A stretch of DNA of 64,000 bases, taken from positions 2,815,728-2,879,727 of the forward strand of contig NW_003314272.1 in the NCBI RefSeq assembly GCF_000143415.4, in the 5' to 3' direction. Position 1 is the first letter of the stretch, and every line of letters begins with the position of its first letter. The notes under the pieces were generated by a model that was not told the origin of the DNA, ran no database searches, and saw only the letters and a program-made list of their open reading frames with translations. This DNA comes from Selaginella moellendorffii (taxonomy: Eukaryota > Plantae > Lycopodiophyta). Both the position numbers and the translations under genes were made by a program. Positions 10,176-64,000 of this stretch are shown in pieces.

Positions 10176-10321
10176 TATCGTGTAGACAATGCTTGCTAAA
10201 TTTTAGTTTTCATTCAAGTATTTAAAGGTGCTTTTATTAGATGAAGTAACCTTTTCCTTTTCCCTAACTCTATATAAATTAGCTTGTGCATTAGGTTTTG
10301 CCATATTAAGGTTTTGGCGAG

Positions 10322-16730: not shown

Positions 16731-16951
16731 GGCGCCGCGACGACGTACCTCTGGATGATCTTGGATCCCTAAAATATGTTATATCCAAAGTAGAAAAGTT
16801 AACTAAAAGGCATTCATGGTAAAGTTTATCCCTCCAAGATTTTAACTAAGGATCATCTGTACTGCGCCATCGAGATTTCTAGCGAATCCATTATACGTGC
16901 TTTCCTTTAAAATGACCCTAGAGTCGTATAGATTGTATCACTAACTCGGAA

Positions 16952-33217: not shown

Positions 33218-33349
33218 CAAGGCATGGTCAGCCTTTGGTGTCAAACCATTGACGAATATGCAGAAGGCATGGTGAGCCTTCAATGTCAAACCATTGATAA
33301 ATATGGAGAAGGCATGGTAAGCCTTCAATGTCAAACCATTGACAAATAT
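33218..33349 (+). repeat. 45-bp tandem repeat (~3 copies) upstream of the PPT; also at ~51907-52037
   Basis: Unit GCATGGTNAGCCTTYRRTGTCAAACCATTGAYRAATATGSAGAAG. Confidence 0.85.
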
Positions 33350-33689
33350 TGGCTAGGTGCCAAGAATGGAAATGGTAACACATGCGAGTGTTACTTTACA
33401 AAATGGTTTACCGTTCGATGAGGACATCGAACTTCGTCTATGGGTGGTGGAGTTGTGAGACACAAAATCCCTAGGCCCCAAAGTGGAGCCGGAAAGGGTG
33501 CCACGTGGTAGTGGCTGAAGCGAGAGCCAAACGAGCGTAACACGTTTGGACCAAAAGCTCCGACTTGAAAAGTCAAGAGCGGGAGTGGAACTCCCAACGA
33601 AGCGCTCGAGGAACGAGCACGAAGCGAGCAAAAAGTGAGGCTCCAAAAAGGGACCCAAAAGGACCAACACATGACACGTGGAAGTGTCC

Positions 33690-34080
33690 AAGATGGACTC
33701 GAGTTGGACTCCGAAGTGGAGTCCGAGATGGACTCGAGTTGGAGTCCGAAGTGGAGTCCGAGATGGACCCGAGTTGGAGTCCGAAGTGGAGTCCGAGATG
33801 GACCCAAGTTGGAGTCCGAAGTGGAGTCCGAGATGGACCCGAGATGGAGTCCGAGATGGAGTCCGAGATGGAGTCCGAGATGGAGTCCGAAGTCGAGACC
33901 GAGACCGGGACCGAGACTGAGACCGAGACCGAGACCGAGACCGAGATCGGGACCGAGAACGAGACTGAGGCCAAGGCCGAGACCGAGATCGAGCCCGAGC
34001 CCGAGTCCGAGTCCGAGTCCGAGTCCGAGTCCGAGTCCGAGTCCGAGTCCGAGTCCGAGTCCGAGTCCGAGTCCGAGTCT
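33690..34080 (+). repeat. LTR-internal satellite of 11/12-bp (GAGATGGAGTCC, GAGATGGACCC) and 6-bp (GAGACC, GAGTCC) units; also at ~29595-29830, 37495-37740, 46580-47040, 52375-52965
   Basis: Direct inspection. This repeat explains the low-complexity ORFs in all six frames. Confidence 0.95.
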
Positions 34081-38660: not shown

Positions 38661-41600
38661 TCATGTCTTTGGATCTTGGAGAACTACAAAATCTCTACAA
38701 TGATCTTGTGAATCCTCTCTAATCTAAACTAGAACCAAACATAAAAAGGAAAGAAATACTTAGCCATTTGCTATTGCAAAGATGTTAATGCTGAGATTGA
38801 TGCACATCTCACAGCCTTGATCCCCAGAAGGCAGTGAGTAAGACAGACATGGAAGAGAAGAGTAGATATTGAGCAAGTGGAGTGTATGTTATTATGGCCA
38901 AGGATATAAAAAGACAGAAAGGGGGATAGGTCTGGCGTGCTATCACCAGCCTATATAACCACTACATGCCCAGTCATCCAAGTCAAGAATTTAGACCGGG
39001 AGAAATCTTGATCTCAATTCCTGACTTAGGAAATGCCTTTGTGCGAAAATCACGATGCAAAATGCATGTACCTCTCTACTCTCTGACAACTAGAGTTGAG
39101 CGGCTCTTGCAGCTCAAGCTTCCATTGTGGTGGTAGTAGCAGTTGTGGTGTTAGCCTCTAGTTCTTCCTCGTAGTCCTCAAGCTTGTCGCGGGTGTAGTT
39201 CTTTATGGCAGTCTCGAGCACCTGTAGTCGGGCCTTGAGCTCCATGTTCTCTTTGGTGAGGCGGGCATTCTCGAGTTGGTACTGCTGCGCTAACTCGAAA
39301 GATTCTCGGCAGGTGTTTGGTGTTGGGAGTACGTGAGCCTGTATAGTGCAAAGGATTCCCTTTACCTGATTGAGTTCCTGAGCCATGCTCGCCATTTTCT
39401 CCTCGTGTGGGTGTGCAAAAACATTGTGGAAGAAGCTCTCCATTCCGTCCCGTGTGTACACCGCCATGTTGGAGTTATGGTACTGCTCCAGGAAGTTTGT
39501 AGGCATGGGACGGATCACTTTCGGCTGCTGCTGGTCCTGATGATGATGCTCCTGCTGCTCCGAATTGTAGTGGTGGTGCTTGTTGTTCATGCGCTTGTGA
39601 TGAAATTGGCGTTGCATTGTTGAACGAGGCGGCTGCATGTTGTCGGCAGTGGTGTCTGGAGCAAATGTCTGTTGCGGCTCAGCTGGCTGCTGTAGCTTGG
39701 TTGGCTGCTGCGGCAAAGATGGCTGCTCCTCAGCATGCTGGTGTGGTGAAGATGGCTGCTCAGCAGGCTGTGGCAACGAATGTTGGTGCTGCTCGACGGG
39801 CTACAACAGTGGAGGCTGCTGCTGCTGAGGCTAGTGCTGCTCGGCGGTCTGCTCCGTGGGTGGTTCGTAAAAAATGTTGTGCCCCTGCTCAACGGATGGT
39901 GGATTTGTAACCGTCTCAGGATTTTCAAGAATATCCTGCGTCAGCAAAATGTGATCGTCCACTGGAATTGTTGTACCTGGAGACAGAGGTTGTGCCAGTT
40001 CCTGCGGTGGTGATGGTGGCAAATTCGGCTGCGGTGAGCTAGGAGGCTGCAAGCTCCTCGTTGATGGCTGTGTAGGTGCCAAACTCTGCTTCCGTTTTGT
40101 TTTGGATCTAGAGGTTCTTGTTGGTTGTTGTCTCGGCACCATGTGCTGGATTGTTTGCACATCACTGTCGTCACTATCAATCTGTGGAGGCGCAACGTTT
40201 CTTCGGCCTTGTCCCCATGTTTTTCTTCGTGGAGTTGCTACTGTCTTTTGCTGGACCTCTTTCCTCTTAGTGTTCACCAAGTGTTCTTCAGCGTGGCGTT
40301 TTGAACTTTTTGTGGCTATGTGCTGCGGAAGCAGAGGTGGTGGACTGTAGATCACCATGGCTTGACTTCTGTGCGTGATGATGGCTCGGACATACAGTAG
40401 TACCAGTGTCCTCACACATTTCTTCGTGTTGAGTTCTCCTACCACCTTCTTAAGTTCCTTACGAAACTTCGGGATCACATATCCTGCTAAATCCACTTTC
40501 TTCCCAGCTTGAAGATCCTCCTAAATGAAGGCCACGGATCTACTCACTGTCGTAGCAGTCTTTCGAAATTCCAGGTTGAGAACAAGGAACTTGAATATGT
40601 TGTAGAGCTCGTCCTTGATGTTGGAGAATTGCAAACTAAGCGCCGAGTTGTAGCTCTCGGGATCTTTCATGATGTCGTGACTTAAAGCCTGTGTGCGTGG
40701 AGCAGAGACTGGCTCGCCTTCGTCCGGGAGACATAGAGCTGCTGCCACCTCCGAATCTTCAAGTCCAACCTGGTCAGTGGCGAGAGCCATCAAGTGAGCC
40801 TTCTCGTTGCTCACTTGATTCATGAGATACCCTTCCATTTGTTCTGCAAAGTTGTAGAGTCCGTGAGTGCGAGTCCAACTCTTGACATCGTCATTGAATT
40901 GCCACTCGAGATTTTGAGAAAGGATGACGGTTTCTACCTGGGATGTTTGCTTGGTTTGCATTGTGTCGACTCTTCGGTGCTGTTGAGAATGCTCTTGTGC
41001 CTGTGATGCAAATAGAGGAAAAGATATGAGCGCTCTTTCTATTCTTGTGAACACACTCTTCTTGCTTCTTTTGTGGGCACTCTCTTTTCTACTTGCTTTC
41101 TTGTTGTTTCTCTCGATTGGTGTGTTTCTTAGAATCTGATGCACTCGTTTGAGATGGGTGAAAGCGCCTAGCTGACAATCACTCTCTAGCACTCTTGTGA
41201 TCTCAAGATTTGCTTGCAACTCAAGCTTACCTTTGTGATGTTCCAGCGTGCGCTTCCTCGCCGTCAGGGTTAGGGCTAACTCTGTTTTGTTTTGTTCATA
41301 TTGTGTTCTTGCATTTTTACTAAGTCTTTGCTTGAGTATAGTTGTTTGTAATCGTTGTGGACTTGTTTGTGGACAACGTATATTGTTTCGGTTTCATTGG
41401 TAATCAATTCCAGCATGGTGTGCTTGGCTTGCATATACGTTATACTTGGTTCTTGATATTTTCTCAATTTGTTGAGATTAACTATTTGTATTTCTTCATC
41501 ATTGAGTGTTGCTAAATGAGCTGTGCCAGGTGTTTGCATACTTGTGATCTTGAATGGTCCTTCCCATTGATGTACCAATTTGCCTCCGATTTTGTCAACA

Positions 41601-44600
41601 TTTCCTCTATACCATAGAACAAAATTTCCAACTTCAAATCTATCAGTTTTCTTTTTAGTCTATTTTCTATCGTGATAAGCTTTTCTCCTTGCTTGTATGG
41701 CTTCAATTGTCCATAAAGCATATAATCTTTCTTCATTTAACTTTTCTAGCATAGCCAATCTTTTTTTGATTGATTCTTCTTGATTAATTTGCAGCTGAAT
41801 TGCCATTCTCAAGGATGGTACAGTATATTCTAGTGGTGTCAAAGCTTCAAGTCCATAAGCTAATTTGAATGGAGTTGAATTTGTTGAAACTTTATATGCT
41901 GTTCTATAAGCCCAAAGAGCATCATAAACTTTATTATCCCGATCTTTAAGATTGGTTTGCACTATTTTCTTCAGTATATTCTTAAGTGTTTTGTTTGTGG
42001 ATTCGGCTTGGCCGTTGCCTTGTGGATAATATGGTGTAAATTTCTTATGTTTGATGAAAAATTCATCTAGTAAAATCTTGATTGTTTCATTGAGGAAATG
42101 TGTTCCTCAATCCGTTACTATTTCTCGAGGTAATCCATATTTTGTGATAATCGTTTCATAAAGAAACTTTACTATATTCTTTGTTGTCGCTTTCTTGAGT
42201 GGTTGGGCTTCTGCCCATTTTGTCATATAATCTGTTGCTACTAGAATATATTGATTTCCATTTCTGCTCGTTTGTATAGGTCCTACAAAATCTAGGCCCC
42301 ATCTTTGGAAAGGTTCTATTGCTATAGTCGGATTCAGTTCTTGTGTTTGTTTCTTGGGTGGAAATTGTGTACGCTGACAAATATCACAAGTTTGACAAAA
42401 CTGTGAAGTGTCTTTCTATAATGTAGGCCATCATAGGCCTGCTTGCAATATTTTCCTTGCTGTAATTTCTTCTGCAAAATGCCCTCCAGAGCAACCTGCA
42501 TGGGCTTCTTCTAGTAACGTGTGTATCTCTTCTTGTGAACGTACACATCTTCTTAATATATTATCATGTCCAATTCTATAGAGTCTTCCTCCGACGACTG
42601 AGTATCGTCGTGTCCTCAAGACGAATTGTTTCCTTTGATCTTGCGTGGTACATGATGTGGGAACTGTTGTAGTTGTTAAATAATTAAAGATTTCTTGAAG
42701 TGTATCGTGGGTGGTAATCTTAAAAAGATGTGAATCAGGTAAGTCATCATTGGGGTCTTGTATATTTTCTCCGGTTGTAATTCTACTGAGATGATCAGCT
42801 TGTTCATGGTATTTGCCTAGTTTGTGAACTATTTCAAAATTGAATTCTTGTAATAACAAAAACCATCTGGCTATTCGTCCACTAAGGATGGGTTTGTTGA
42901 GTAGATGAATCAATGCTTGATGATCAACGAATATTTTGACTTTGTTGGAAAGTAAATAATGTCGGAATTTGGTCAAGGCATATATCATGCCTAAGGCTTC
43001 TTTTTCTGTGGTTGTATAATTCATTTCAGGTGGAGAAAGTTGTCGACTTGCATAATATATTAGGTGATCACAATGATCATCTTTTCTTTGGCACAGAATT
43101 GCTCCTAGCGCATAGTCAGAAGCATCAACTTGTACGAAAAATTCTTGAGTCCAGTTTGGTTGGACCAGAATTGGTGCTTGTGTAAGTTTTTCTTTAAATA
43201 TCAAGAATGCTTGCTGACATTCTTGAGTCCAGTGATAGAATTTGTCTTTCTTAAGTAACTCAGTTAATGGTGTAGCGACTTGGGCATAGTCCTTGATAAA
43301 TCTTCTATGGTAACCCATCTTGCCCAAAAAACTGCACAATCTTTTAAGATCATAAGGTGGTTGCATTTTCATAATGACGTCGGTTTTAGCTTTATCGATT
43401 TGAATGCCTTGAGTGGAAACAATGTGGCCAAGGAGTATGCCTGATTTAACAAAGAAAGTACATTTTTTAGGATGCAGAGCAACTTGGTTTTGTCTGCATT
43501 TGATAAAACATTTCTTGAGGTATTTAAGGTGTTTGTCTTTAGGTCCAAAAACACTAAAGTCATCCATAAAGACTCGCATAAAATTTGTGAGATAATCTTG
43601 GAAGGTATCGGTAATGATCCGTTGAAATGTAAATGGGGCATTGGTTAATCCAAATGGCATTCGCATGTATGCGTATGCTCCCCATGGATTTATGAAAGCT
43701 GTTTTATGTTGATCCTTGACAGCTATATGTACTTGATTGTAGCCTAAAAAACCGTCAAGAAATGAGTACATCTCATGTCCGGCAACGGCATCAAGTATTT
43801 CATTTGAAAATGGGATGGGAAAGGCATCTTTTGTTGTGGCATCATTTAACTTCTTGTAGTTTACACACATACGTAATTTCCCATTTTTCTTGGGTACAAT
43901 GACTAAAGGTGATAGCCATTGGGCATTTTGTATTGGATATATGAATCTTGCTTCAAGGAGCTTATTAATTTCAGCTTTTATTTTCTCAGCGAATGTTGGA
44001 TTCATCCGGTAAGCAGTTTGTTTAATGGGTTGAACTCCTGGAAGTAATTCGATTCGATGTGTACATAATTCAGGTGGTATACCCTTGAGGTCTTTATATG
44101 ACCACGCAAAGACATCTTTATACTTAGTAAGGAGCGTAATAGCCTCAAGTTTAAATGGTTTGTCGAGTTGTGTAGCTATTAAGATGTTTTGTGGGTTTGA
44201 GGGAACCCCTAGATTTAATTCTTCAATATCTTCATTGATATTTATACGAAGTTTGAATTCTTGATTTTCAGTGGTGAGTGCGGATTCGTCTTGTATATCT
44301 AGGTGATATTCTGTAGTTTATAGTTGTTTGGGTTGTATTGCTGGTCTTGCTTTTTGTACAGTAGTTTTTGTTGTATGTTTCTTCTTTAAATGAGGTTGTT
44401 TTGAATCTTCATAGTCTTGACACTTGATTATAGGGAGTATCCTATTAAGGTCAATTTCTTGAATTGCCTTAAGTTCAGGATATGCTTCAAATAATTTAGC
44501 TTCTTCAAGATCGTCTAAGCCTTCTTGCCAATTGTATTCTTGAACTTGTGTTGGTCAGAAACTTCTTGAGATTTTCTTGCTTGTCAATGTTGATATTTTA

Positions 44601-45660
44601 GTTTGTCCTTGTTGGGATTGGATACATATCTCATGTTCCATCCAATACTGTGCAGAAACAGCTTTGTTAAGCCAAGGTCTGCCTAACAAAATTTCGTAAG
44701 AAGATTCTTCAATCGGCATTTTTAACACAACAAAGTTAACTTTAAATTTATATCCTTTGATTGTTATAGAGACATCACGAATGATGCCTGCTGGTCTGAC
44801 AACTCTTTGATCAGCCATGCGTACATTGAATGGTGCAGCTTGTATATTGCCCAATCCTAAAGCTTTGCATAGTGCATATTCGATGATATTAACCCCAGAA
44901 CCTCTATCAAGGATAGCTCTTTCAATATGATTTTTGCCGATGTGTATGTTGATACAAGGTACATTATCATCATAATCACCAGGTTGGATTCTTTCAGCTT
45001 GCTCTTGTTGTGTTGGTTGAGATTGGTGTTTTTCTTATGTGCGAGCTTCAGGGATCCTTCGATTACAGATCTTCAAGTTTGGTCTTTCATATATGGTGCT
45101 ATTTGCAGTATTTGTTGTAGGGTTAAAGTAATTCCCTGCTGTAGTATGTGCTCAGCAATGGTTGTATGCTCATCTTGAGTAAAGCTTAATACTTGAGTTT
45201 GGTTGTCTTGATTGTATATTTGATCATTAATAATTTCGGGATCTTTGTTTCGAAGCTCTTGTTGAATGGTGTTAAGTATTTTCTTACTCTTTTTCCACTC
45301 AGTATTCTCGATTTCTATCGCGTGATCACTTTCATCTTGTTCTTCATAATTATCAGGTTGTTGACATTCATATTGTGTTCTAGTGATTGCCAATACTTCT
45401 GGTTCTTCAGTCATTAGTTGTTCTTCAACTTCTGCTTGAACTACTCGTGCTGCTGGTGGTCTTCCAGCAGGAGGTTGATTGACTCTTTGGTTTTGTGGAT
45501 TGTATTGTTATCGAATTTGATTTTCTTGTGGTTGATTTTGTCTTGGTTGATAATGCTGTTGCAAAGCTTGATTGTTGTAATTGTTATATTGCCTTTGTTG
45601 GCTTTGGTTGTAGTTGTTCCATTATGGACGTTGATAATTGTTTTGGTGTCCATTGTAATA
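38660..45660 (-). mobile_element. Internal fragment of a non-chromovirus Ty3/Gypsy element (D): partial gag, pol and an extra 3' ORF; no LTRs visible
   Basis: Protease region (ILLGRPWL), RT (WLSPLVIVPKKNG, FMDD), RNase H (VDASDYALG), integrase (HAGCSGGH, YYPQGNGQAES, WEGPF). No chromodomain; a few stops. Confidence 0.9.
39114..40961 (-). pseudogene. Extra ORF downstream of pol (~615 codons, two in-frame TAG stops)
   Basis: Track ORFs 40521..41219, 39831..40496 and 39114..39776 share one frame. Globular N-terminal domain, basic/Pro/Gln-rich linker, C-terminal coiled coil. Confidence 0.8.
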
Positions 45661-45744: not shown

Positions 45745-48700
45745 TGTAAGGAACCAACTCCCCAAGGTGTCGTAGGCTAAAGGATCCCGGAAAGCACAAC
45801 CAAAATGATAAAGAGTTTATTGGATGGGACCAAGTCCGAGATCGAGTCCAAGATCGACTCTGAGACCAAGTTCGAGATAGAGTCCGAGATCGAGCCCGAG
45901 GCCGACTCCAAGACCGAGTTCGAGACCGAGTTCGAGATAGAATTCGAGATCAGGTCCAAGACCAGGTCCGAGGTCGAGTCTGTGGTCGGGTCTGAGGTCA
46001 AGTCCGAGATCGAGTCCGAAATCAGGTCTGAGATCAAATCCGAGATCAAGTCTGAGACCGAGTCCGGGTACTAATACAGGTCAAGGGGTGAAAGCCCAAA
46101 GCGTCTGTCTCCCAGAGGGGGGGGGGGGGGGGGGCAAGGGCTGCAGGGGGTTCCAAAAGTATAGTAGGATAGTGAGGTCCAGGAACTAGTCTTGAAAGAA
46201 CTCTCCAATGGTGTTTCCAAACTAACTTGAGGTTGAGATTGGGATCAAGGGGCCTTGCGTGGGAGTGAGCATGGACTCGAGTGGTGCCGAAGGGGCCACC
46301 CAAGGAAGTGCTCAAGAGCAGCTCCAGCTTCCAGAAAGGAAACCGATTGCGTGTGAGACACAAAATCCCTAGGCCCCAAAGTGGAGCTGGAAGGGCGCCA
46401 CGTGGTAGTGGCCGAAGCGAAAACCAAATGAGCGTAACACGTTTGGACTAAAAACTCCAACTTGAAAGGTTGAGAGCGGGAGTGGAACTCCCAACAAAGT
46501 GCTTGAGGAATGAGCACGAAGCGAGCAATAAGCGAGGCTCCAAAAAGGGACCCAAAAGGACCAACACATGACACGTGACGGAGTCGGAGATGGACCCAAG
46601 ATGGAGTCCGAGGTGGAGTCCGAGATGGAGTCCGAGATGGACCCGAGATGGATCCGAGATGGAGTCCGAAATGGAGTCCGAGATGGACCTGAGATGGAGT
46701 CCGAGGTGGAGTCCGAGGTGGACCCGAGATGGACCCGAGATGGAGTCCGAGGTGGAGTCCGAGGTGGACCCGAGATGGAGTCCGAGGTGGAGTCCGAGAT
46801 GGAGTCTGAGATGGGCCCGAGATGGACCCGAGATGGAGTCCGAGATGGAGTCCGAGTTGGAGTCCGAGATGGACCCGAGATGGAGTCCAAAGTCGAGACC
46901 GGACCAAGACCGAGACCGGGACCGAGACCGAGACCGAGATTGGGACCGAGACCGAGACCGAGGCCGAGCCCAAGTCCGAGTCCGAGTCCGAATCCGAGTC
47001 TGAGTCCGAGTCCAAGTCCGAGTCCAAGTCCGAGTCCGGAGCCTGAGAGGGTGAAAGCCCAAAGCGTTCGTCTCCCAGACCCTGGGGGGTTTGGTGAGCT
47101 CCAAAAGTATAGTAGGGGGAGGATTGCAGTGGAGCCAGTTTGGCCAGGAAAGGCCAGTTTGGCCCAAGAAGGCCAGACCCAGTGTTGGGTGATGAGCTGC
47201 CCACTGGGAAGTCCAAGACTAGAGTGAACACGGACCGACAAGCGGGGTAGCTTGGTGAAGTGTTCAAGAGCCGGCTCTAGTTCCCCCGGGAGATCGACTG
47301 GCCGATGCTCCCAGTCCAAGTGTGGGTGGCACTACCTACTTGGATACCTGGTGTGGCTCAACGAAACCCGCTCTAAGCCCATGGCTAGAGCACCCAAGGG
47401 CAGAAGGCGAGGAGAGTACCCAGGTGGCTTGCGTAAGGCCACGGTGTTCCGAAATGTTGTCCCAAAGGCCCAGACTGTGGAAAGGAAGAGGAGCAGTCCT
47501 CTGGAGTAGTGACCAAGGACACAGTCGTGTGGTGAGGAAGTCCCAGAGGACCATGGGACTTAGTGGTCGGGCCTGTGGGTCTCGATCCAGTGGCAGTGTT
47601 GGCAAACACGGCCAGGGGCAAAAAGGGACTTAGTGGGGACTGACAGAGGGATATTGGGGAAGGCTATTCCCCTTGTCGGTGGGCATCCTAAGGATGCTAA
47701 GGAGTGGATCTGAGATGACCACTCACGGATGGTTTGCCTAGTCTTGGAGAGCCAAGACTGTGATGCAAGTGGTATTGGACTACCAGTGTGGCGAAGGTGA
47801 TTGGGCATGGCCTTAGCGTAACGGGCTGCCATGTCGGTGGTACCTTTGAGTGTCGGTCATGGGATCGGACACGTGGAGCACTGGGACCAAGTGCAAATGT
47901 TGAGTGGCATGGATGCCATTCTCGGGGCTAGCAAGTACCAAGTCTTGGATTGGACTTATGGAGGTTGTGAATGAGACTCCTCCAAGTGGTCAGAGGTGTG
48001 GTTAAGTGACTAAAGTAGAATGGAAAATTTAGTCGCTTACAATTTGGTATCGGAGCTGTTCCTTAGTCCAACTTTTATTGGTGCTCAAGTATATCACCAT
48101 TGATGTTGGCATCGGAAGGTCCTAGGAGTGGGCCTATCCTGGAGGAGTAGCATGTCGAGAGGACATGGCTCTCCACTCAAGTTCATGCGTGAACTTGGGC
48201 ACAATGTGGTGGGTAGAAAAGGGCCAATAATGGAACGACTTTGGGATCTTGGGAACAATATATGGTTTTCCTCAGAGAGTTGAGGATGTGATCTAGATGA
48301 GCGTTTGACTCAGTAAATGGCCAATGTAGTTGTGGTAAACAACTAAAGTTGGGATCACAGGAAAGATAAAGACTCCAAAGCAATAAGGGAGTCACAAGAT
48401 TTTCCTCATGTAGTTGAGGTTGGTGCTCATGAATGTGAGACCAGAAGTAATGACCGTGGGAGGTCAAATATGGAAGAGGACTCAAGTCCTTGAAATGGTA
48501 GCCGGGGCTACCTTTAATAAATGCTGGAACAACCCAAGGAGTTGGGGGGTGTACTTAGAGATGAGTTGGCATTCTCATCACATGGACAAGTAGTCCTAAG
48601 GGGTAGAGGTTGCCCCAGAGAACAAAAACAAGTGTCAGAGTAACACTTGTGAAAATAGTCCTTCTGAGTAGGACAGGAATGCAGGAAGTGTATTCCAATG

Positions 48701-51700
48701 AGCTAGTGCCTCACAATTGGGACCTTACGGGTCTGTGGATTAACCAAGTCCAAAACTGCTGGATGACTGCAGTAGAGTCAAGGGATGGTCCTAAAAGGAC
48801 TGATGGAAGCATTTGGACTGAGGTGTGTGGTACCCCACAAAGGATGGGGGGGGATCATAGGATCCAAGGATGAGAACAGAGGGTATCTCATCGATGGCAA
48901 AATGCGCCATGCTAAAGTCGTGGGAAAGGTGTTCCCAAAAAGAAAACAACTTTGACACAAAGTTGTGTGTGACCTCTATGGTGCAGTGCTAACAGATGGT
49001 TGGCATGAGAAAGAGCGGTATTGGTCTTGGCAAAGACTTAGACACAAAGAAGAAGTGTCATAGAGGTAGGCTCGTGAAGCCGATGGTGTGGAGACACTAA
49101 ATGTGCCAAGGTGTGATACCTTGAGGCTATGTTGGTGGGTTCATGAGAACCCCTTGCCAAAGGAATCCCAATGAAAATGGGAATGGCATAGCCTAAGCGG
49201 CAGAGCATGCGGTTGGAGTGTGGTGACCCAGATAATGATGGAGGTGTGGAAGCACCAGCAATGAGTCGTAGGACTTGACAACTATGAGGCAACTAAGCAA
49301 GACGTGCAAAATAATTGGTTAAATGGGTAGAAGGTAGCTACCCAAGCCTTCTTAATGGCATAGGGAAGTGGATGTACCCTTACAGGGGATAAGTTGCTTA
49401 TGTTGCGATATAGTAAGTCAATGTCATAAACAAAAATACTCATTGTCAAGGAAGCCGTCATTGGGACACCCAAACACTCTAGAACACCAGAAGGTGGTGT
49501 TTGATGTCGCGAGGGCAGTAGATAAGGCCCAAGGGACTAAGTCCCTAGCGAATGATGGATAGTAGGTGCTATCCAAATGTCCAAGGTGGCGGAGACAGGA
49601 GAAGACTGTCTACTCGAATTGGACAAAGCCAAAAATGGAATTTTGGCAAGGCTCATGCAAAGGCCCGTAAACAACAATATAATTCCCGTGTGTGGGATTA
49701 TAGAGTGAGCATACCTGGATTGAGGAACCACTCCCTAGGCTATCAGGTAGGTTCATCCCTAAGAATACTTGCTAAGGCATGATAGAAAGTGCAAAGCCAT
49801 CCTCCTGGTCTGGAGGAGAATGACCGAAGAAAAGGTGTGAAGCCAAAAGCAAGAAGTAAGGGGATAAAACCGAACCATAGGAATCGAAGGGCATAACCAA
49901 GGTTGGTTATGCCAGCTGGGAGTGGAGAATCAAGTGCGGGCTCGAGAGTGTTGCCACTAGCAACCGTGATGCCATGGAGAGTCTAAAATATGGAATTGTC
50001 CATGTTAGACTATATGGTAATTGGAAAGCTTGCAAAAAGGGAGGCCTTAGCAAGCTAAGGGACAGAGTTCCTTCAAGGTTCCCAAAGAGGATTCTAGGTA
50101 GCTTAGTACCTAGAAAGACCAAGCGTAAATGGTTCAAGGAACGCGCGAAATCGGAGTGGCGCAGCAGAAGCGTGGTCTTAAAGCTTGCCATGAGGCAAGG
50201 CTATCAAGGTTAGGGAAGTAGTTCCCGAGTGTTCAAAAAGAGGGCTTTGAACAAAAGTCAATGATCAAGGGCTTTCACGCTTGTGCAGGAACCATGTTAC
50301 AGTGGTCGGAGGACTTGCCAAAGCGAGATTGGCAAGTCAGGGGAACAAATACCCTAGTTGAAGGTGATAACTTCAAAAAGGGTGGGCCATGGGGCCAAGC
50401 ATGGAGGAGTCCATGCATGATCACAGCCTTGTCAAGTGAGAGGACTTGGCAGTGGGGAGGAACTAGGTTTCTAAGCTGTGATCTATAGCGCGCTTTGAGT
50501 ATAAGTTGGTGCACCGGCGTGGGGAGTCATGCCAGGCATCCTGGATGATGCCGTCCGTAGATGCATATACGGAGGTTGGGTTCGAGTCCCGACCCTCTAG
50601 TGCTTGGGTTCGAGTCCCAAATCACTAGGGCATGGTGATGGTTTGGAATATGAGGACACTCATATTTCGGTGGTCATGGACTTTCAGTGGGGAGACTGGT
50701 TTGGGCACACCGCCAAACGAGGGATGCCTCGGAGTCGTGATGCACGGTTAGATTGCTTAGTGTGAAAACTCGGCATATCTAACTTGAACGCTTTGGTGCA
50801 AGTGGCACCAAGGACGTGGTGAGTGAGATGGGGACACCTAATCTCAGTTGTTATGAACCCTTGGCCTTAAGGGCTGGCTTGGGTGCACCGCCAAGTGTGG
50901 GGGATGCCCCCAGGGTTATAGTCAACAATTTGAAGGTCTAGAAGACCAAGTACCTCTTGGCAACTCTAATAAGGTGCCAAGGTGAGATCACTAGGTGATT
51001 GTATGGCCAAATAAGGACAAGGTCCTTGGTTGGCTAAGGAATGAAGTTCCTGGTTCAAAATGTTGAAATTGAACTGTTTAAGGTGGTGTGGCTTGGTTAT
51101 GATGAGCAAGTGGGAAAAACACCTTAGGAAAATGAGCTATGTCATTGCGATGGCATAGTGTGTCCAAGGAAAGTAGTCTCTAGAGAGACCCATGGGAGGG
51201 TCACAAAGTTGGGCCGTGGATAGAGCCCACTGCAGAAAATGCTAAAGAGACTTACTAGGTGTGAACACCCTAGTCTTGGCAGAGCAGAGCCTTTGCTATG
51301 GAATCAAAAGAATACCTCAAGGAGGGAGGTAGAGATTCGATGTTGCTTGGTGCAATAATCAATGGATAGGAGCAAAAGATGAGTGGCCAAGATAGGGCCG
51401 TGGAATCCCTTGGAAGGAATCCAAGTGGCAAAGTTAGGCGAGGAACACTAATGTGTTGGATGCTAACAAATTGCGGGAAAGGAAGTGTGTTTCCAAGGAT
51501 GGATTCCGAATTGCTCCGATTTGGCGAAAGTGGAAGCTCCAAGGGAGGGAGCAGTAAGGTAGCCAACTGATAAGATCATGAACAGCCCTAGCACAAAGTA
51601 TGATGAATGGAACTTAGTGCCCAAGGTGTCATGAAATAGAAGAGAGGATGATGGTGCCCTCAAGTAATGAATTTCCTAGGATGGGGAAGTGGAGTTGCAC

Positions 51701-54486
51701 AATATGTGCAATGCAAGGTGTTGGAGTGCCGAGGTGAGACATTCAATAGATGGAAATTGAGACTACTCAAGAAGGAGTAGTGGGATTGACTTAGAGAAGG
51801 GTCTCTAAGAGGTTTAGCAAGAACTAAACCAATAAAAGGAGAGAACCACTACATGTGGTCCAATCAGTCTCTAAGTTGGAAAGACTACCCTCCTTAGAGG
51901 ATGGGCAAGGCATGGTCAGCCTTTGGTGTCAAACCATTGACGAATATGCAGAAGGCATGGTGAGCCTTCAATGTCAAACCATTGATGAATATGGAGAAGG
52001 CATGGTAAGCCTTCAATGTCAAACCATTGACAAATATTGGCTAGGTGCCAAGAATGGAAATGGTAACACATGCGAGTGTTACTTTACAAAATGGTTTACC
52101 GTTCGATGAGGACATCGAACTTCGTTTATGGGTGGTGGAGTTGTGAGACACAAAATCCCTAGGCCCCAAAGTGGAGCCGGAAAGGGTGCCACGTGGTAGT
52201 GGCTGAAGCGAGAGCCAAACAAGCATAACACGTTTGGACCAAAAGCTCCGACTTGAAAAGTCAAGAGCGGGAGTGGAACTCCCAACGAAGCGCTCGAGGA
52301 ACGAGCACGAAGCGAGCAAAAAGCGAGGCTCCAAAAAGGGACCCAAAAGGACCAACACATGACACGTGGAAGTGTCCGAGATGGACTCGAGATGGAGTCC
52401 GAGGTGGAGTCCGAGATGGAGTCCGAGATGGACCCGAGATGGACCCGAGATGGAGTCCGAAATGGAGTCCGAGATGGAGTCCGAGATGGACCTGAGATGG
52501 AGTCCGAGGTGGAGTCCGAGGTGGACCCGAGATGGACCCGAGATGGAGTCCGAGGTGGAGTCCGAGGTGGACCCAAGATGGACCCGAAATGGAGTCCGAG
52601 ATGGAGTCCGAGATGGACCCGAGATGGAGTCCGAGATGGAGTCCGAGATGGAGTCCGAGATGGACCCGAGATGGGACCCGAGATGGACCCGAGATGGAGT
52701 CCGAGGTGGAGTCTGAGATGGAGTCCGAGATGGGCCCGAGATGGACCCGAGATGGAGTCCGAGATGGAGTCCGAGTTGGAGTCCGAGATGGACCCGAGAT
52801 GGAGTCCAAAGTCGAGACCAGGACCAAGACCGAGACCGGGACCGAGACCGAGACCAAGATCGGGACCGAGACCGAGGCCGAGGCCGAGCCCAAGTCCGAG
52901 TCCGAGTCCGAATCCGAGTTTGAGTCCGAGTCCAAGTCCGAGTCCGAGTCCGAGTCCGAGTCCGGAGCCTGAGAGGGTGAAAGCCCAAAGCGTTCGTCTC
53001 CCAGACCCTGGGGGTTTGGTGAGCTCCAAAAGTATAGTAGGGGGAGGACTGCAGTGGAGCCAGCTTGGCCAGGAAAGGCCAGTTTGGCCCAGGAAGGCCG
53101 GACCCAGTGTTGGGTGATGAGCTGCCCACTGGGAAGTCCAAGACTAGAGTGAACACGGACCGACAAGCGGGGTAGCTTGGTGAAGTGTTCAAGAGCCGGC
53201 TCTAGTTCCCTCGGGAGATCGACTGGCCGATGCTCCCAGTCCAAGTGTGGGTGGCACTACCTACTTGGATACCTGTCGTGGCTCAATGGAACCTCGCTCT
53301 AAGCCCATGGCTAGAGCACCTAAAGGCGAAAGGCGGGGAGAGTACCTAGGTGGCTCGCGTAAGGCCACGGTGTTCCGAAATGTTGTCCCAAAGGCCCAGA
53401 CTATGGAAAGGAAGAGGAGCAGTCCTCTAGGGCAGTGACCAAGGACACAGTCGTGTGGTGAGGAAGTCCCAGAGGACCGTGGGGCTTAGTGGTCGGGCCT
53501 GTGGGCCTCGATCTAGTGGCAGTGTTGGCAAACACGGCTAGAGGCAGAAAGGGACTTAGTGGGGACTGACAGAGGGATATTGGGGAAGGCTATTCCCCTT
53601 GTCGGTGGGCATCCTAAGGATGCTAAGGAGTGGATCTGAGATGACCACTCACGGATGGTTTGCCTAGTCTTGGAGAGCCAAGACTGTGATGCAAGTGGTA
53701 TTGGACTACCAGTGTGGCGAAGGTGATTGGGCATGGCCTTAGCGTAACGGGCTGCCATGTCGGTGGTACCTTTGAGTGTCGGTCATGGGATCGGACACGT
53801 GGAGCATTGGGACCAAGTGCAAATGTTGAGTGGCATGGATGCCATTCTCGGGACTAGCAAGTCCCAAGTCTTGGATTGGACTTATGGAGGTTGTGAATGA
53901 GACTCCTCCAAGTGGTCAGAGGTATGGTTAAGTGACTAAAGTAGAATGGAAAATTTAGTCACTTACATTGCGGTGCTCTTGACTTATGTGGAGTGGTGCC
54001 CCACTTAAGTATCTTGTGGCTCATTGATCCTCGCCCTTCCTAGGGGTTTGGGCCTTCCCTTCGGGATGGAAGTGGGGGGGGGGGGTTAGAGGTACCCATA
54101 CCGGGCTGTTAGGCCATGGTATTTCACCCTGGCATCCCGAAGCAAGCGTTGCACCCAAGGCTTGGGATTTAGAGGGTCCCATGATCAAGTTTTGTTGTAC
54201 CAAGGGATGTTAGGAACTTGGAGGCTTGGTGTGCTTGGCTGCGTGTAGTTGAACATTAAGTCCAATCTAACCCGAGAGGGGGATTAGGAGAGATTTGGGA
54301 ATCCGTGGATGGATGGCTAATGCTCCGTTGTTCGTGCAGTAAATAACTGAAACCAAGTAGGACTAAGTAGGAGCTGGTACAATAAGCGAGAACCTTGACA
54401 AGGGAACTTAGCTAAAATCTAAGGTAGTGTTGGTCGGATAAACGAGGTAAGCTAACAAATTGGAAAGGAAAATTTTGTGGCTTGCA
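45745..54486 (+). mobile_element. Solo LTR of chromovirus family C (45745-46351 + 53973-54486), split by B3
   Basis: The joined halves (~1.12 kb) align with LTR 57128-58257; TG..CA ends; TSD ATACT/ATACC. Confidence 0.9.
46352..53967 (+). mobile_element. Family B element, complete copy B3 (non-autonomous, ~4.1 kb non-coding interior)
   Basis: LTRs 46352-48041 and 52142-53967, perfect TSD TTGCG, PBS TGGTATCGGAGC at 48045-48056, PPT ATGGGTGGTGGAGT immediately before 52142. Confidence 0.95.
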
Positions 54487-56875: not shown

Positions 56876-59800
56876 TGCAACGTATGTACATTACTCAATG
56901 TCCCTTAGAGACTAGTACAAAAGCAAATCGCTCATAGTGCTACTCTCTCAATAAAACCATCTTGCTATTTCCCACCTAATGGTGATCACTGCCTTTTAAT
57001 TGGGGTTGCTACAATTGCCTCCTCTACAAAGCATCCAGTGCCAAATCACCTTGTCTTGCCTCTTTGACTACAGTAGCTTTACTAAGTGGATATATCATCA
57101 CCCAACGCATGGGTATAGCCTTCCTTGTGTAAGGAACCAACTCGCCAAGGTGTCGTAGGCTAAAGGATCCCTGAAAACATGACCAAAATGACAAAGAGTT
57201 CATCAGATGGGACCGAGTCGAAGATCGAGTCCAAGACCGACTCTGAGACCGAGTTCGAGATAGAGTCCGGGATCAAGTTTGAGGCCAAATCGGAGATCGA
57301 GTTTGAGACTGAGTTTGAGACCGAGTTTGAGACAGAGTCCGAGATCCAAATCGGGTCCGAGACCGAGTCGGAGGTCAAGTCCGAAGTCGAGTCCGAGATC
57401 AGGTCTGAGATCGAGTTCGAGATTGAGTTTGAGATCGAGTCCAAAGTCGGGTCCGAGATCAAGTCCGAGACCGAGTCCAAGTACTAATACTGGTCAAGGG
57501 GTGAAAGCCCAAAGCGTGCGTCTCCCAAGGGGTTCCAAAAGTATAGTAGGGATAGTGAGATCCAGGAACCAGTCTTGAATGAACTCTCTAGTGGTGCTTC
57601 CAAACTGAGTTGAGGTTGAGATTGGGGCCGAGGGGCCTTGGGTGGGAGTGCGCAGGGACTTGGGTGGTGCTGGAGGGGCCACCCTAAGAAGTGCTCAAGA
57701 GTAGCTCCCACTCTCGAAAGGGAAATTGACTGTGGTGCTCCCGGCTCATGTGGAGTGGTGCCCCACTTGAGTACCATGCGGCTCATTGGTCCTCGCCCTT
57801 CCTAGGGGCTTGGGCCTTCCTTCGGGATGGAAGTGGGGGGGTAGAGGTACCCATACTGGGTTGTTAGGCCACGGTGTTTCGCCCCAGCATCCCGAAGCAA
57901 GTGTTGCACCCAAGACTTGGGATTTAAAGGGTCCCATGATCAAGTCTTGTGGTACCAAAGGGGTGTTAGGAACCTAGAGGCTTGGTGTGCTTGGCTACTT
58001 GTGCCTGTGGGGAGTGTAGCCAAACCTTAAGTCCAGTCTAACTCAGGGAGGGGGATTGGGAGAGATTTGGGAATCCGTGGATGGATGCCTAACGCTCCGT
58101 TGCTCGTGCAGTGAGTAGCTGAAACCAAGTAGGCCCAAGTAGCAGCTGGTACCATAGGTGGGAACCTTGGCGAGGGAACTTAGCAAAAGCCAAGGTAGTG
58201 TTGGACGGGTAGATGAGGTAAGCTGGCAAATTGGAAAGGAAAAATTTGTGGCTTACAATTTGGTATTGGAGCCTTTTCCTCAGTTCTAACGAAGGATAGA
58301 GGCGGATTGCTGAGAGATGGCAAAGGCAGGGCGGAAGCGAACCAAGGCGGAGACGAAACCTCCTCTAGAGCTGGAGCCTCCGATCGAACGAGAGGCTATA
58401 GATGTGGAATCCTTGCATGAGGAGGACTCCAGTGAGGAAACTTCCAAACAAGAGTCCAGTGGCAAGGTTCGGTCGTCCAAGGCTCAATTGGACGTTCTAG
58501 AAGGACAATTGGCACAGACCAATGCCCTGCTGGAGACTCTCGTATGCAAGCTAAAGCATGACGAGAAGCGGAAGAAAAAGCGAAAGACTACGGATGCTGG
58601 CAGCGCAGAAGGTGCAGACCTTTCGGTAGGGACTGAGGTAGAACCAAACAAGGTCGAACAGACCAAAGTGGAATCAGTCCTTCAAGTAGTTCCCAAGTAC
58701 AAACCAAAGCCCCCACCGGTCTTCAAGGGAGTGAATGACTATAAGGTGGTGGAGGATTGGTTTTACGATATGGAGGATTACTTCCGAGTGTTGTGATTAC
58801 CGAGCTTGGAGAAGGTCCCATGTGCAAAACCATACTTGGCAAATAATGCCAAGTCTTGGTGGAAAATGACGGAGGCCAACGAAGGACCGGTGGCCACTTG
58901 GGACATGATGAAGGCGAGGATCCGCGCAACTTACATTCCTCTGAATGCTACTTTACATCTAAGAGACGAGCTGAGTAAGCTGAAGTAGACCGGAACCATG
59001 TAGGAGTATGTGAATGGGTTTATGGCAAAGAGGATACTTGTCACAGACATGGGGGATATGGATGCGTTCCATGCCTTCATATCAGGTTTGCAAACCTAGG
59101 CTCGCGGTGAGGTGATGCGCTGGAACCCGACCAACTACAAGGAAGCGTTGGATGTGGCCATCAATGTGCATTTCAACGATAACCTGCAAAAAGGGAATGC
59201 GACAGAGTCGGGGTCCACATTTAGCAAAGGGGCCAAACCAAGGGGAACATATAGCAAAGGGAAATTCAAGAAGAGTTTCTCTAAGAATGAGTCCTTGGGG
59301 TTCCGAAAAGGCAAATCCGGTGGCCAGCGAGCGAGTACATAGGGGAGTCAAGCAAAAAGAGACAAACCCACGGATAAGAAGGTCAAGTTGTTTAGCAGCA
59401 TGGGAAACACGTATGCTACAACTACAGTGAAGTGGGACACTTTTCGAGGGAATGTCCCTACCCGAAGAAGGCCAGAGCCAATATAGCCATTAAGTCGGGT
59501 GAAGTCCAAACTGAGGTATGTGATTTAGTCCCTAGCTCATGGTAGAGAGTCGTTCGCGACATCTACTAGCCCTCCAAGGGAAGCTCAGGGGTAGCTTTGT
59601 TAAGATCCTTATTGACACAGGTGCTTCAGATAATTTTGTGGCTGCAGACATAGTCCAGCAAGCCGGACTAACAATGCAGCGGCTGGGCGAACCAAGGACT
59701 ATAGAGTTTGTTCAAGGTAGCCAAAGCACCAATGAGGTACTTCGACAAGCGAGAGTCGAAGTAGGGACTTGGAAAGTAGACATGGATTTCACTGTGTTGG

Positions 59801-62160
59801 ACATGGCGGGATTTGATGTGATCTTTGGGATGGATTAGTTCAATCGGTTCGTGGTAGCCTTGCATAGACAAGGTAGGAACCTTGTGGTACTAGCGAATGC
59901 CCAAGGAAGAAGATCCAGGGTGGAGGCCCAGGATCTAAAGGTAGGGCAATGCAAGGCCAAAGATTCATGCCTAAACCTGGTGTCCACGAGGGGACAACTC
60001 ACTAAAGGGACCAAGGCTGCATTTTTGTGCTTACTCTCTGTGAAGAGTGACAAAAAGACAGGAACAGAAGAAGTACCTTTAGTGATCCAGCGGGTGTTGG
60101 ACCAATTCTAGGATACCATGCCGGAGGAGCTACTAGCGGGGTTGCCCCCCGCACGACCGATAGAATATAAGATTGAGTTGGTCGAGGGTGCTGAGGCGGT
60201 GGTTCGTCCCCCCTATCATTTGAACGAAAAAGAACTCGCTGAGCTCAAGCACCAACTAAAGGAGTTGGTGTACAAATGGTATGTTAGGTTGAGCAAGTCA
60301 CTGTATGGGGCGCCGGTGCTATTTGTGAAAAAGAAAGATGGATCTATGCGCATGTGCATAGACTACCGGTTGTTCAACAAATATACAAAGAAGAACAAGT
60401 ACCCTTTGCCAAGGATTGAGAATCTGTTCGATAGGTTAGGAAAGGCAAAATACTTCTCAAGGATTGACCTAAGGTCAGGATACTACTAGATTAGGGTAGC
60501 AGAGGAAGATGTTGAGAAGATAACCTGTCAAACAAAGTATGGGAGCTTCGAGTTTCTAGTGATGCCCTTCAGGCTATGCAATGCGCTAGCAACATTTTCA
60601 GCATTGATGAACCATATCTTTGTACTCTATCTGGATCACTTTGTGGTCGTCTATATTGACGACATCCTGATCTATAGCAAAACGCTAGAGGAGCATGCCA
60701 AACATTTGACAAAGGTGTTTGAGAAACTAAGGGAACACCAACTGTATGCTAAAGAGAGCAAATGTGACTTTGCTCAGCAAGAGGTAAAGTTTCTCGGGCA
60801 TGTGGTGGGCAAGGACGGGCTTAAGGTGGACCCTAAGAAGGTTCAAGCGATCCAGGATTGAGAGCGACCATTGAATGTACATGAGTTAAGGGCATTCTTG
60901 GGGCTATGCAACTACTATCAAAAGCTTATCAGACACTATTCGAGAGTAACTCTACCCTTAACGGACCAAACAGAAAAAGTGAAGATGGTATGGACAGCGG
61001 AATGCGAGGTGGCATTCGTCCACCTCAAGGGGAAGTTGAGGAAGGCTCCCATGTTGGCATTACCAGACTTTGGTAAGGACTTTGAGGTAGAAACAGATGC
61101 TTCAGACTTTGCGTTGGGCGTAGTTTTGAAGCAAGACAACCATCTAGTAGCGTTCTTCTCAAAGAAGTTGGACAAGGCTCAACGGAAGTGGCCTACCCAT
61201 GAAAAGGAATTGTTTGCGGTGGTCAAGGCACTTAAGGAGTGGCGACACTACCTTGGGAGACACTTCAAGGTTTACACGGACAATGTGGCAACGAAACACT
61301 TCTTGTCACAACCCGACCTGAGGGGAAAACAATGTCGGTGGGCCAATGCTTTGGCCGAGTTTGATTGCGAGATTCTGTACAAGCCTGGGAAGAGCAACAT
61401 CGTGGCAGATGCGCTAAGTCAAAAAGCGAGCTTGAAGTTGGCGATATTCAGTGCGACAACAGCCTTTTGGGATGATGTGCGGACCGCATACGAAAACAAT
61501 GGTCTAGCACAAGAGGAATCTAGAGGCACGGGAAGCTCACCAGAGAGGTGAGCTGCCAACGGAAGAGAAAATGGGCTATGCGGAACGCAACGGACTCATA
61601 TATTACAAGCAAATGAGGGTGTATGTTCTAGAAGGGGAACTAAGGAAGGTAGCTTTAGAAGAGTGTCATAACGGACCTCTTGCGGGACACGGCAGAGTGC
61701 CCAAGACAATGGGTTTACTCAAGAGAAAGTACCACTGGCCAGATATGGCTAAGGACGTCGAAGACTATGTAAAGACATGTCCAACATGTTAGCAGGTCAA
61801 AGCCGTGACTAAGGCTAGTGGGGGCTTGTTACAAAGCATCCCAATTCCAGATCATCCGTGGAAATGTCTGACGATTGACTTCATCACGGGACTCCCTCCA
61901 AGCGAGGGGTTCGATGCGATATTTGTGGTGGTGGATTGATTTTCGAAGATGGCACATTTCATACCCACCACAACGGAAGTGGATGCGGAAGGTGTGGCGA
62001 AGCTGTTCTTCGAACAAGTGGTTCAAGTGCGGGGAAGGCCAGAAGAGATTATCTCAGATCAAGATAAGATATTCACCAGTAGGTTCTGGAGAACACTCCT
62101 GGAACAGTATCGCACCAAGTTGAAATTCAGCACAGCCTATCACCCATAGACAGATAATGG

Positions 62161-62204
62161 GTATTAAGTCAAGTTTGATGGCACTAACACTTCTTGACAA
62201 ACAG
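62161..62204 (+). other. Putative 44-nt spliceosomal intron in the integrase core
   Basis: GTATTA...CACTAAC...ACAG. Removal gives HP(Q)TDNGQTERVNR in frame. Confidence 0.7.
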
Positions 62205-62618
62205 ACAAACGGAAAGGGTGAATAGGCAGCTAGAGGATTATTTGCGATGCTATGTCTCGGGAGACCAGACTGATTGGGTAAGTCATTTGGGACTTGCGGA
62301 AATGTGTTATAACAACTCACCACATTCAAGCATCGGGGTGAGTCCATAGGAAGTCATCAATGGGCGAGCTATTGAAGGTCTTATGGAACTCAGCGTGGCC
62401 GAGTATCATGGAGAGTTACCCGTAGTGGAGGCATTCATGGCAGAAAGACTCAACATTTGGAATCTAGTGAGGGATTCCTTGGAATGGGCTCAACAAAGGC
62501 AAATCAAGTACGCGAACTAGAAGCACCGGGATGTAGAGTTCCAAGCTAGGGAAAAGGTGTGGCTGAACACCAAGAACCTCAGGCTACCAAGTGGGATCAG
62601 CTGGAAGTTGACCCAAAG

Positions 62619-62670
62619 GTAAAAATGCATGTATTCCTGTAAATGAATTGATCTTGAATTCCTTAAGTAG
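62619..62670 (+). other. Putative 52-nt spliceosomal intron just before the integrase GPY motif
   Basis: AG|GTAAAA...TAG|G. Removal gives KLTQRFVGPYEI exactly in frame. Confidence 0.75.
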
Positions 62671-64000
62671 GTTTGTAGGGCCTTATGAGATTGAAGCTCG
62701 AATCAGTAAAGTGGCTTACCGTCTCTAACTTCCTCGAGAGATGGGGAAGATGCACCCCGTGTTCCATGTGAACTTACTCAATCCGTATTTTGAGGATCCG
62801 CCTCGCAAGGACCAAGTAAGACCTTTACCTGAGGTGATCCAAGGGGAAGAGGAATACGAAGTCGAGGCCATCCTCAATGTGCGCAAGAGCAAGCAACAAG
62901 GACGTGAGGTGAGAGAGTTCTATGTGAAGTGGAAAGGATTTCCACACTGCGAAGCAACATGGGAACCAGAGGAGAACCTAGCGAATGTGTGAGGTCTAGT
63001 GGAGGAATTTCTACAAGGCAGAACTCTATGTACTTATGCAAAGTTCAATTAAAGTATCAATTTGTGAAGTTGAGTAATGGTATATGTTGGGACCCGAAGG
63101 CGCGCCGAAGGTAAGCTAATTAGTATGGGTTAGCTAGGTTGACCAAGTGTAGGGAACTACGCCCAACTCCCTGCGGGGATGTCGAATTCGTAAATGTATT
63201 CTATAAAGGTTGGGTTTGAGTCCCAACCCCCTAGTAAAGCAAGGCTAGGTTCAAGTCCCGACCCCATACTAGGGCGTGGTGAGGTGGAGTATAGGGACAC
63301 CTATATTCTGTTGTCATGGGCTCTTGGCTGGGGAGGCTAACTTAGGCACACCGCTAAGTGGGGGGATGCCCCCGGAGACATGGTCAACAAGTCGTAGGAT
63401 AAAAAAATAGACGTTCGATGTGGGCATCAAACTTCTTCTATGGGTGGTGGAGTTGTAAGGAACCAACTCGCCAAGGTGTCGTAGGCTAAAGGATCCCCGA
63501 AAGCATGACCAAAATGATAAAGAGTTCATCGGATGGGACCGAGTTGAAGATCGAGTCCAAGACCGACTCTGAGACCGAGTTCGAGATAGAGTCCAGGATC
63601 GAGTCCGAGGCCGAGTTCGAGACCGAGTTCGAGACAGAGTCCGAGATCCAAATCGGGTCCGAGACTGAGTCCGAGGTCGAGTCCAAAGTCGAGTCCAAGA
63701 TTGGGTCCGAGATTGAGTCTGAGACCGAGTCCGAAGTCGGGTCCGAGATCGAGTCTGAGACCGAGTCCGAAGTCGGGTCCGAGATCGAGTTCGAGATCAA
63801 GTCCGAGACACTGAGTTCGAGTACTAATATGGGTCAAGGGGTGAAAGCCCAAAGCGTGCGTCTCCCGGGGGGGGGGGGGGGGGGGCTGCAGGGGGTTCCA
63901 AAAGTATAGTAGGGATAGTGAGGTTCAGGAATCAATCTTGAAGGAACTCTTTAGTGGTGCTTCCAAACTGAGTTGAGGTTGAGATTGGGGCCGAGGGGCC

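Follow-up and report, generated by a model that had tools for sequence, protein, structure and literature searches.

The window analysed here, a stretch of 64,000 nucleotides (nt) of the Selaginella moellendorffii genome (contig NW_003314272.1), carries towards its right end a chromovirus, i.e. a retrotransposon with long terminal repeats (LTRs), whose integrase gene is broken by two short inserts. These inserts are probably introns of an element whose unspliced RNA is reverse-transcribed while the full integrase, chromodomain included, is translated from a spliced mRNA. Both inserts are family-wide and not private to the copy in the window, and the first one, intron 1, can be spliced exactly. 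The element is likely a copy of the high-copy family SM1-Galahad, a Galadriel-related chromovirus of S. moellendorffii (Novikov et al. 2012, PMC3350952), as judged on features rather than on sequence comparison. According to the available text of that paper, the SM1-Galahad consensus has a 3885-bp open reading frame (ORF) that reaches into the integrase core and, behind it, two short ORFs, one of 316 bp and a final one of 309 bp that contains the chromodomain. The introns explain this three-ORF layout, which was published without such an explanation: in the available text "intron" and "splic" have 0 occurrences and the split ORFs are left unexplained.

Inserts in the integrase gene and their boundaries

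In a three-frame translation the integrase frame switches twice, from 61508-62160 to 62205-62618 and then to 62671-63050. The two interruptions as they stand in the window copy, 62161-62204 (44 nt) and 62619-62670 (52 nt), start with GT and end with AG, and their A+T contents are 0.64 and 0.71 respectively, whereas the coding DNA on either side has 0.52-0.53. An earlier note, made from the letters of the window, had described the integrase frame as broken by two short AT-rich inserts, and this description holds. Among the windows of the same length elsewhere in 58317-63050, 0.6% are as A+T-rich as the first insert in the 47-nt version adopted below and 0% are as A+T-rich as the 52-nt insert. 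All the GT(A/G)..(C/T)AG pairs of 40-70 nt with an A+T content of at least 0.62 present in 58300-63050 lie inside the two inserts (7/7).

The earlier note preferred 44 nt (62161-62204) for the first insert and gave 47 nt (62154-62200) as an alternative. The alternative is the right one. The family has G at 62154, 62200 and 62203; therefore intron 1 is 62154-62200, and the AG closing the 44-nt version, which depends on a letter absent from the other copies, exists only through decay. This version is also incompatible with the RNA read described below, and we reject it as a look-alike peculiar to the window copy, which has lost both splice sites of intron 1 by G>A change. Both inserts had moreover been placed in phase 2: this is correct for insert 2, but intron 1 is in phase 1. 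For insert 2, an acceptor at 62678 (60 nt) was rejected since it keeps the wrong frame and its AG is missing in other copies. Insert 2 closes with two AG triplets in tandem (62665-62670), where an alternative acceptor that keeps the frame is possible.

Intron 1 has a branch-like motif, CTAAC, at 62184-62188. When it is retained, an in-frame TAA (62165-62167) appears upstream of the glutamate (Glu) codon 62212-62214 of the GQTE motif, which we take to encode the third catalytic residue of integrase. The proposal that the unspliced RNA cannot encode an active integrase thus agrees with the position of this stop. Retention of insert 2 likewise brings in a TAA, at 62620-62622.

The sizes are those of host introns, as the earlier note had stated: in the gene at 14100-16800 (-), presumably Hsp70-like, the gaps that we read by eye as introns (n=8) measure 44-66 nt, and 5/8 have exact GT..AG ends at the coordinates so read. 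Each insert is flanked by 4-nt direct repeats, 62150-62153 and 62197-62200 (ACAG in the family letters) for intron 1, 62617-62620 and 62669-62672 (AGGT in the window copy) for insert 2. The introns could possibly have arisen by insertion, target duplications of 4 nt (ACAG, AGGT) furnishing the splice sites. Introner-type mobile introns occur as related copies at unrelated sites and have terminal inverted repeats. The two inserts are unrelated to each other (best local match 6 nt), and neither a second copy of either insert in the window nor a terminal inverted repeat on them was found. A search of 57000-64000 against Rfam gave no match, and the inserts do not fold better than shuffled sequences (z -1.44 and 0.82).

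Family copies, RNA reads and relatives

Other copies were sampled as contig pieces from the public DNA runs X1, X2, X4 and X5 (17,019, 9,338, 33 and 121 pieces respectively) placed on the window stretch. X1 covers 61400-63100 and the three others 62060-62770; X1 and X2 are one sample. In each DNA run 30/30 bins have depth, both inserts included, and the listed pieces span each insert without a gap. At 62154 the letter G represents 492,178/495,915 of the summed depth in X1, 20,550/21,039 in X2, 115/115 in X4 and 123/123 in X5; at 62200 the corresponding values are 615,376/628,741, 22,852/24,179, 61/64 and 163/168. The share of G in the 4/4 runs is thus 98-100% at 62154 and 94-98% at 62200, and it is 77-98% at 62203. 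No precise insert-less copy was found, either in the 9 joints of X2, X4 and X5 (0/9) or among 15 listed of the 30 joints of X1; joints with depths of 5-12, close to the minimum among the listed contigs, were detectable in X2, X4 and X5. Two checks proposed in the earlier note, on the fixation of the inserts with their splice letters across copies and on precisely intron-less copies, therefore both come out on the side of introns. Run X5, although labelled as another organism, contains copies of the window family; they have both inserts and agree in the splice letters.

Three RNA runs were searched in subsamples of 1,382 million letters, about 12% of a run, and gave 5, 2 and 0 reads on the element, the 0 being that of X23. 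One read of run X21 covers 62108-62153 and 62201-62304 but not the letters between these segments. A 150-nt model read composed of these two segments fits the X21 depth in 11/11 bins, whereas the 44-nt model misfits. Intron 1 is thus removed exactly in the single RNA read that crosses the junction (1/1). This read bears out the 47-nt boundary, as it skips exactly 62154-62200. Concerning the junctions to be expected in RNA, 62153^62201 is present in this one read; the two named in the earlier note fare less well, 62160^62205 being a misfit and 62618^62671 appearing in 0/3 reads. The three reads concerned (62561-62653, two runs) enter insert 2 and then diverge from the window, the X21 one matching it until 62643, and they probably come from a transcribed copy that is broken or chimeric. 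We infer that insert 2 is spliced too.

Variation among copies was analysed on a small sample, the 40 best supported of 236 variant rows: 31 undo a decay change (C>T or G>A) of the window copy, which leaves 9 of a different type. Of these 9, the 6 exonic rows are without exception synonymous changes at third positions when the spliced frames are used (6/6), and 5 of the 6 lie downstream of intron 1; the other 3 rows all lie inside intron 1. For comparison, 9/27 decay-type exonic rows fall at a third position vs 6/6 for the non-decay rows (one-sided Fisher p = 0.0045). Within 62060-62770 the window copy has 4 in-exon stop codons, at which most other copies have a sense codon. The two largest length variants are inside the inserts, a 1-nt loss at 62174 (35% of the X4 depth) and another at 62621 (7.5% of the X2 depth, 34 contigs). 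The exons appear to have remained under selection during the spread of the family.

The sister family SM2-Galahad has the same domain order as SM1-Galahad and a group I chromodomain but one continuous ORF of 4731 bp (PMC3350952, available text), and is therefore without such introns. Site 1 is uninterrupted in 71 of the 80 related loci examined on metagenome contigs, the other 9 having no match to the motif. For site 2, a stricter motif test matched just 39/62 loci, and the distance from the catalytic motif to GP was used in its place. It amounts to 540 nt in the window copy as it stands and to 441 nt after removal of both inserts; in the relatives it is 432-499 nt (n=57 measurable of the 71 loci), 432-456 nt in 54/57 and for the most part 441-445 nt. 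Removal of the inserts thus restores the frame, as had been claimed, with a spacing within the range of most relatives. No insert of comparable size was present at either site in the measured relatives. A protein search gave 17 matches, of which the best has 59% identity and none is a close member of the family, and a search with the middle exon returned no matches. Among 150 listed protein representatives the best identity was also 59%, again without a close family member; 106 have a contiguous catalytic motif, 44 are unmatched by the motif pattern, and none shows a clear intron at the same site. The viral contigs searched contained no relative. Because the relatives are without inserts and the sister family is uninterrupted, the introns were presumably gained in the SM1 lineage after its split from SM2-Galahad.

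Probable splicing of the integrase and its alternatives

The unspliced RNA would encode Gag, protease, reverse transcriptase, RNase H and an integrase truncated before the catalytic Glu. It would also be the form that is reverse-transcribed, because new copies keep the introns. The spliced mRNA would encode the complete integrase with the GPY motif and the chromodomain. Given a high copy number together with two spliceable introns in integrase, the family would have to sort its RNA into replicated and translated forms. A single-ORF chromovirus must hold integrase below Gag: Tf1 does so by degradation of integrase, and splicing could do so in SM1-Galahad. One may go further and suppose, although we regard this as doubtful, that the two newly gained micro-introns form an integration switch, the unspliced RNA making the particles and the cDNA and being the sole packaged form, the host spliceosome rationing the integrase that is catalytically complete and directed to chromatin. 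Such a switch, if true, would fix how much integrase a single-ORF element makes relative to Gag and link its jumping to the splicing state of the host.

Several points weigh against the main reading, that of two spliced introns with an unspliced replicated RNA. The uninterrupted sister SM2-Galahad is abundant and young (PMC3350952, available text); therefore the introns are not needed in the SM1/SM2 clade, and SM2-Galahad could supply integrase in trans. Concerning DNA, contigs drop rare variants, so that the absence of insert-less copies holds at a limited sensitivity, and half of the X1 joints (15/30) are outside the listing behind that count. The selection signal comes from 40/236 variant rows chosen by support, and 1-nt losses are found in exons too (9/12 indel rows listed, 1-6% of the X2 depth). 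Neither donor, that of intron 1 or that of insert 2, has a G at +5. Concerning RNA, the 3 x 1,382 million letters contain only 7 reads of the element. The splicing of intron 1 is one read, decoded from bin depths and below the 3 reads from which joints are listed, and its two readouts, drawn from the same subsample, are not independent. This read may derive from read-through transcription of the host, or another plant accession may have an insert-less copy that gave rise to it. Finally insert 2 is not spliced in the RNA reads that reach it (0/3), all three of which enter the insert.

Part of these data could be accommodated if the inserts had crippled the integrase of the family, which would have spread via the SM2-Galahad integrase in trans, the observed splicing being incidental. 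Novikov et al. 2012 found no intact copy of SM1-Galahad, while the sister SM2-Galahad is intact and young with compatible TG..CA ends (PMC3350952, available text for both). In addition RNA of the element is scarce in the RNA runs, and gene-less elements in the window have LTR and 3' untranslated region (UTR) sequence in common with the integrase element; trans-mobilisation would therefore occur in this group. We nevertheless consider a borrowed integrase unlikely: it leaves unexplained that two unrelated inserts both have exact GT..AG ends and both restore the frame, the lineage variants downstream of intron 1 are 5/5 synonymous, and at the 4 covered in-exon stops most other copies have a sense codon.

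A partial version, in which only intron 1 is spliced and insert 2 retained, would yield a whole catalytic core without GPY motif and chromodomain, or with the chromodomain made separately from the 309-bp ORF. The 0/3 RNA reads spliced at insert 2 agree with it, as do the weak branch-like motif of this insert (only TTGAT at 62648) and the presence of an ATG proper to the last exon at 62741. But insert 2 has exact GT..AG ends and the top A+T content of all the 52-nt windows tested, and it is the removal of both inserts that restores exactly the spacing of the relatives. Moreover the lineage variants of the last exon are 2/2 synonymous, one lying upstream of the ATG at 62741 and one just before it, and the three unspliced reads, since they diverge from the element, probably stem from a broken copy. 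We regard this partial version as very improbable. As for inserts that would be private scars of a dead copy or an artefact of assembly, the 16 in-frame stops and several frameshifts of the window copy would suit this idea, which is refuted by the presence of both inserts in the great majority of copies in 4/4 DNA runs and by the same three-ORF layout in the published SM1-Galahad consensus (PMC3350952, available text).

Two spliced introns in integrase, the reading that we prefer, can be compared with known systems, for which we refer to the available text of the papers cited. Plant LTR retrotransposons are generally without introns, Ogre and EVADE being the exceptions named in a 2025 review, and when such an element is given an intron, the new copy normally comes out without it, which is how an RNA intermediate was classically proved (PMC12786077). 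Ogre is, like the window element, a plant LTR retrotransposon that keeps a genomic intron and splices a subset of its transcripts for the full polyprotein (PMC6317226, PMC4408406, PMC12786077). It differs by having a single intron, about 274 bp long, which separates the ORF of gag-protease from that of reverse transcriptase, and by belonging to the Tat clade of Ty3/gypsy, which is not a chromovirus clade. Unspliced Ogre RNA withholds reverse transcriptase, RNase H and integrase, whereas in the window family, with two introns of 47-52 nt within integrase, only integrase catalysis and the chromodomain would need splicing. The earlier note had set Ogre apart as a case of a different kind; this is true of where the introns lie, how many there are and how long they are, but Ogre too needs splicing for its full polyprotein. 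By analogy, the window family probably works like Ogre at a new place, without being an Ogre element.

In BARE1 and EVADE (Ty1/copia) splicing yields Gag only and removes pol expression (PMC3735527, PMC5580714), whereas in the window family it would create the complete integrase; BARE1 nevertheless provides a precedent for separate translated and packaged RNA pools (PMC3735527). Penelope-like elements similarly retain spliceosomal introns after retrotransposition, but they have neither LTRs nor a DDE integrase and follow another replication route (PMC8557442). In the open literature, which leaves aside subscription journals and Repbase reports as well as the supplementary element table and sequences of PMC6317226, we found no report of introns in SM1-Galahad or inside the integrase of any LTR retrotransposon, and SM1-Galahad is named in a single paper. 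The available text of PMC2864245, PMC6839031, PMC9940879, PMC6523491 and bioRxiv 2022.12.06.519325 likewise contains nothing on such introns. Replicating an unspliced RNA while translating a spliced integrase mRNA would be rare among LTR retrotransposons. SM1-Galahad would offer two datable intron gains, and interrupted SM1 and uninterrupted SM2 form a natural pair for studying how retroelements choose the RNA that they package. Screens based on ORFs would call such an intron-bearing family defective.

Structure and identity of the element and its surroundings

The domain order of the element (Table 1) is that of a Ty3/gypsy chromovirus: LTR, primer-binding site (PBS), gag-protease-reverse transcriptase-RNase H-integrase with a C-terminal chromodomain, polypurine tract and LTR. 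The PBS-like stretch presumably resembles the initiator-methionine (Met) type.

Table 1. Features of the integrase-bearing element (positions in the window)
Feature	Position	Strand	Description
5' LTR	57128..58257	+	1130 bp, TG...CA; internal tandem array
PBS-like stretch	58261..58273	+	13 nt
gag region	58317..59535	+	decayed zinc-knuckle-like motif; stops and frameshifts in window copy
Protease, reverse transcriptase, RNase H	59536..61500	+	Pfam RVP_2, RVT_1, RT_RNaseH
Integrase, first exon part	61508..62153	+	zinc-binding domain and most of catalytic core; Pfam Integrase_H2C2, rve
Intron 1	62154..62200	+	47 nt, phase 1; family GT..AG, both sites decayed in window copy
Integrase, middle exon	62201..62618	+	418 nt; catalytic Glu codon 62212-62214
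Putative intron 2	62619..62670	+	52 nt, phase 2, AG|GT..AG|GT
Last exon	62671..63052	+	GPY motif, SH3-like part, chromodomain; Pfam Chromo, SH3_Tf2-1
Polypurine-tract-like stretch	63442..63452	+	
3' LTR	63454..64000	+	ends at window edge; 19-nt G run 63867-63885

Outside the tandem array the two LTRs are identical at 93/98 and 147/156 aligned letters. A Pfam search of 58317-58793, in the gag region, gave no match. The first exon part of integrase aligns with the Ty3 and foamy-virus integrases as far as HPQ. The window copy is dead, with 16 in-frame stops (11 TAG, 4 TGA, 1 TAA) and several frameshifts, and no second copy of its integrase was found within the window.

SM1-Galahad is described as an element of about 7.5 kb present in hundreds of copies, with LTRs >1 kb containing G runs and a 13-bp Met PBS (PMC3350952, available text). 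The element in the window shares with it the host, the size, an LTR >1 kb with a G run, the 13-bp PBS, and a long ORF followed by two short ones. As to the host, a PPR protein encoded in the window clusters with two Selaginella proteins, one of which is from S. moellendorffii. The middle exon contains the ORF 62302-62619, which corresponds to the published second, short ORF (318 vs 316 bp), and the last exon contains the ORF 62741-63049, starting at its own ATG, which corresponds to the published 309-bp ORF (309 vs 309 bp). For the long ORF the span from ATG to stop is 3851 in the window copy, with frameshifts, against the published 3885 plus stop. Three other assignments were rejected. Membership of Tcn1 does not fit, SM-Tcn1 being without a PBS while the window element has a PBS-like stretch; nor does Ogre, since a chromodomain is present and the inserts are inside integrase. 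Ginger and GingerRoot DNA transposons consist of an integrase-like transposase between terminal inverted repeats, without reverse transcriptase, whereas reverse transcriptase, RNase H, protease and LTRs are all present here.

Part of the 3' UTR (63207-63398) has 72-74% identity to 31842-31997, 32080-32199 and 50811-50936. These matches belong to repeated elements (about 29358-35078 and about 46352-53967) which have no pol match and have the LTR-type tandem array in common with the integrase element. In a second gypsy-type element, at 41300-45100 (-), the integrase core is uninterrupted, and additional ORFs come after it (39114-41393, -). Finally 1-2839 and 9294-12111 form an inverted duplication of 90% identity with one intronless ORF per half, which we take to be GDSL-lipase-like.

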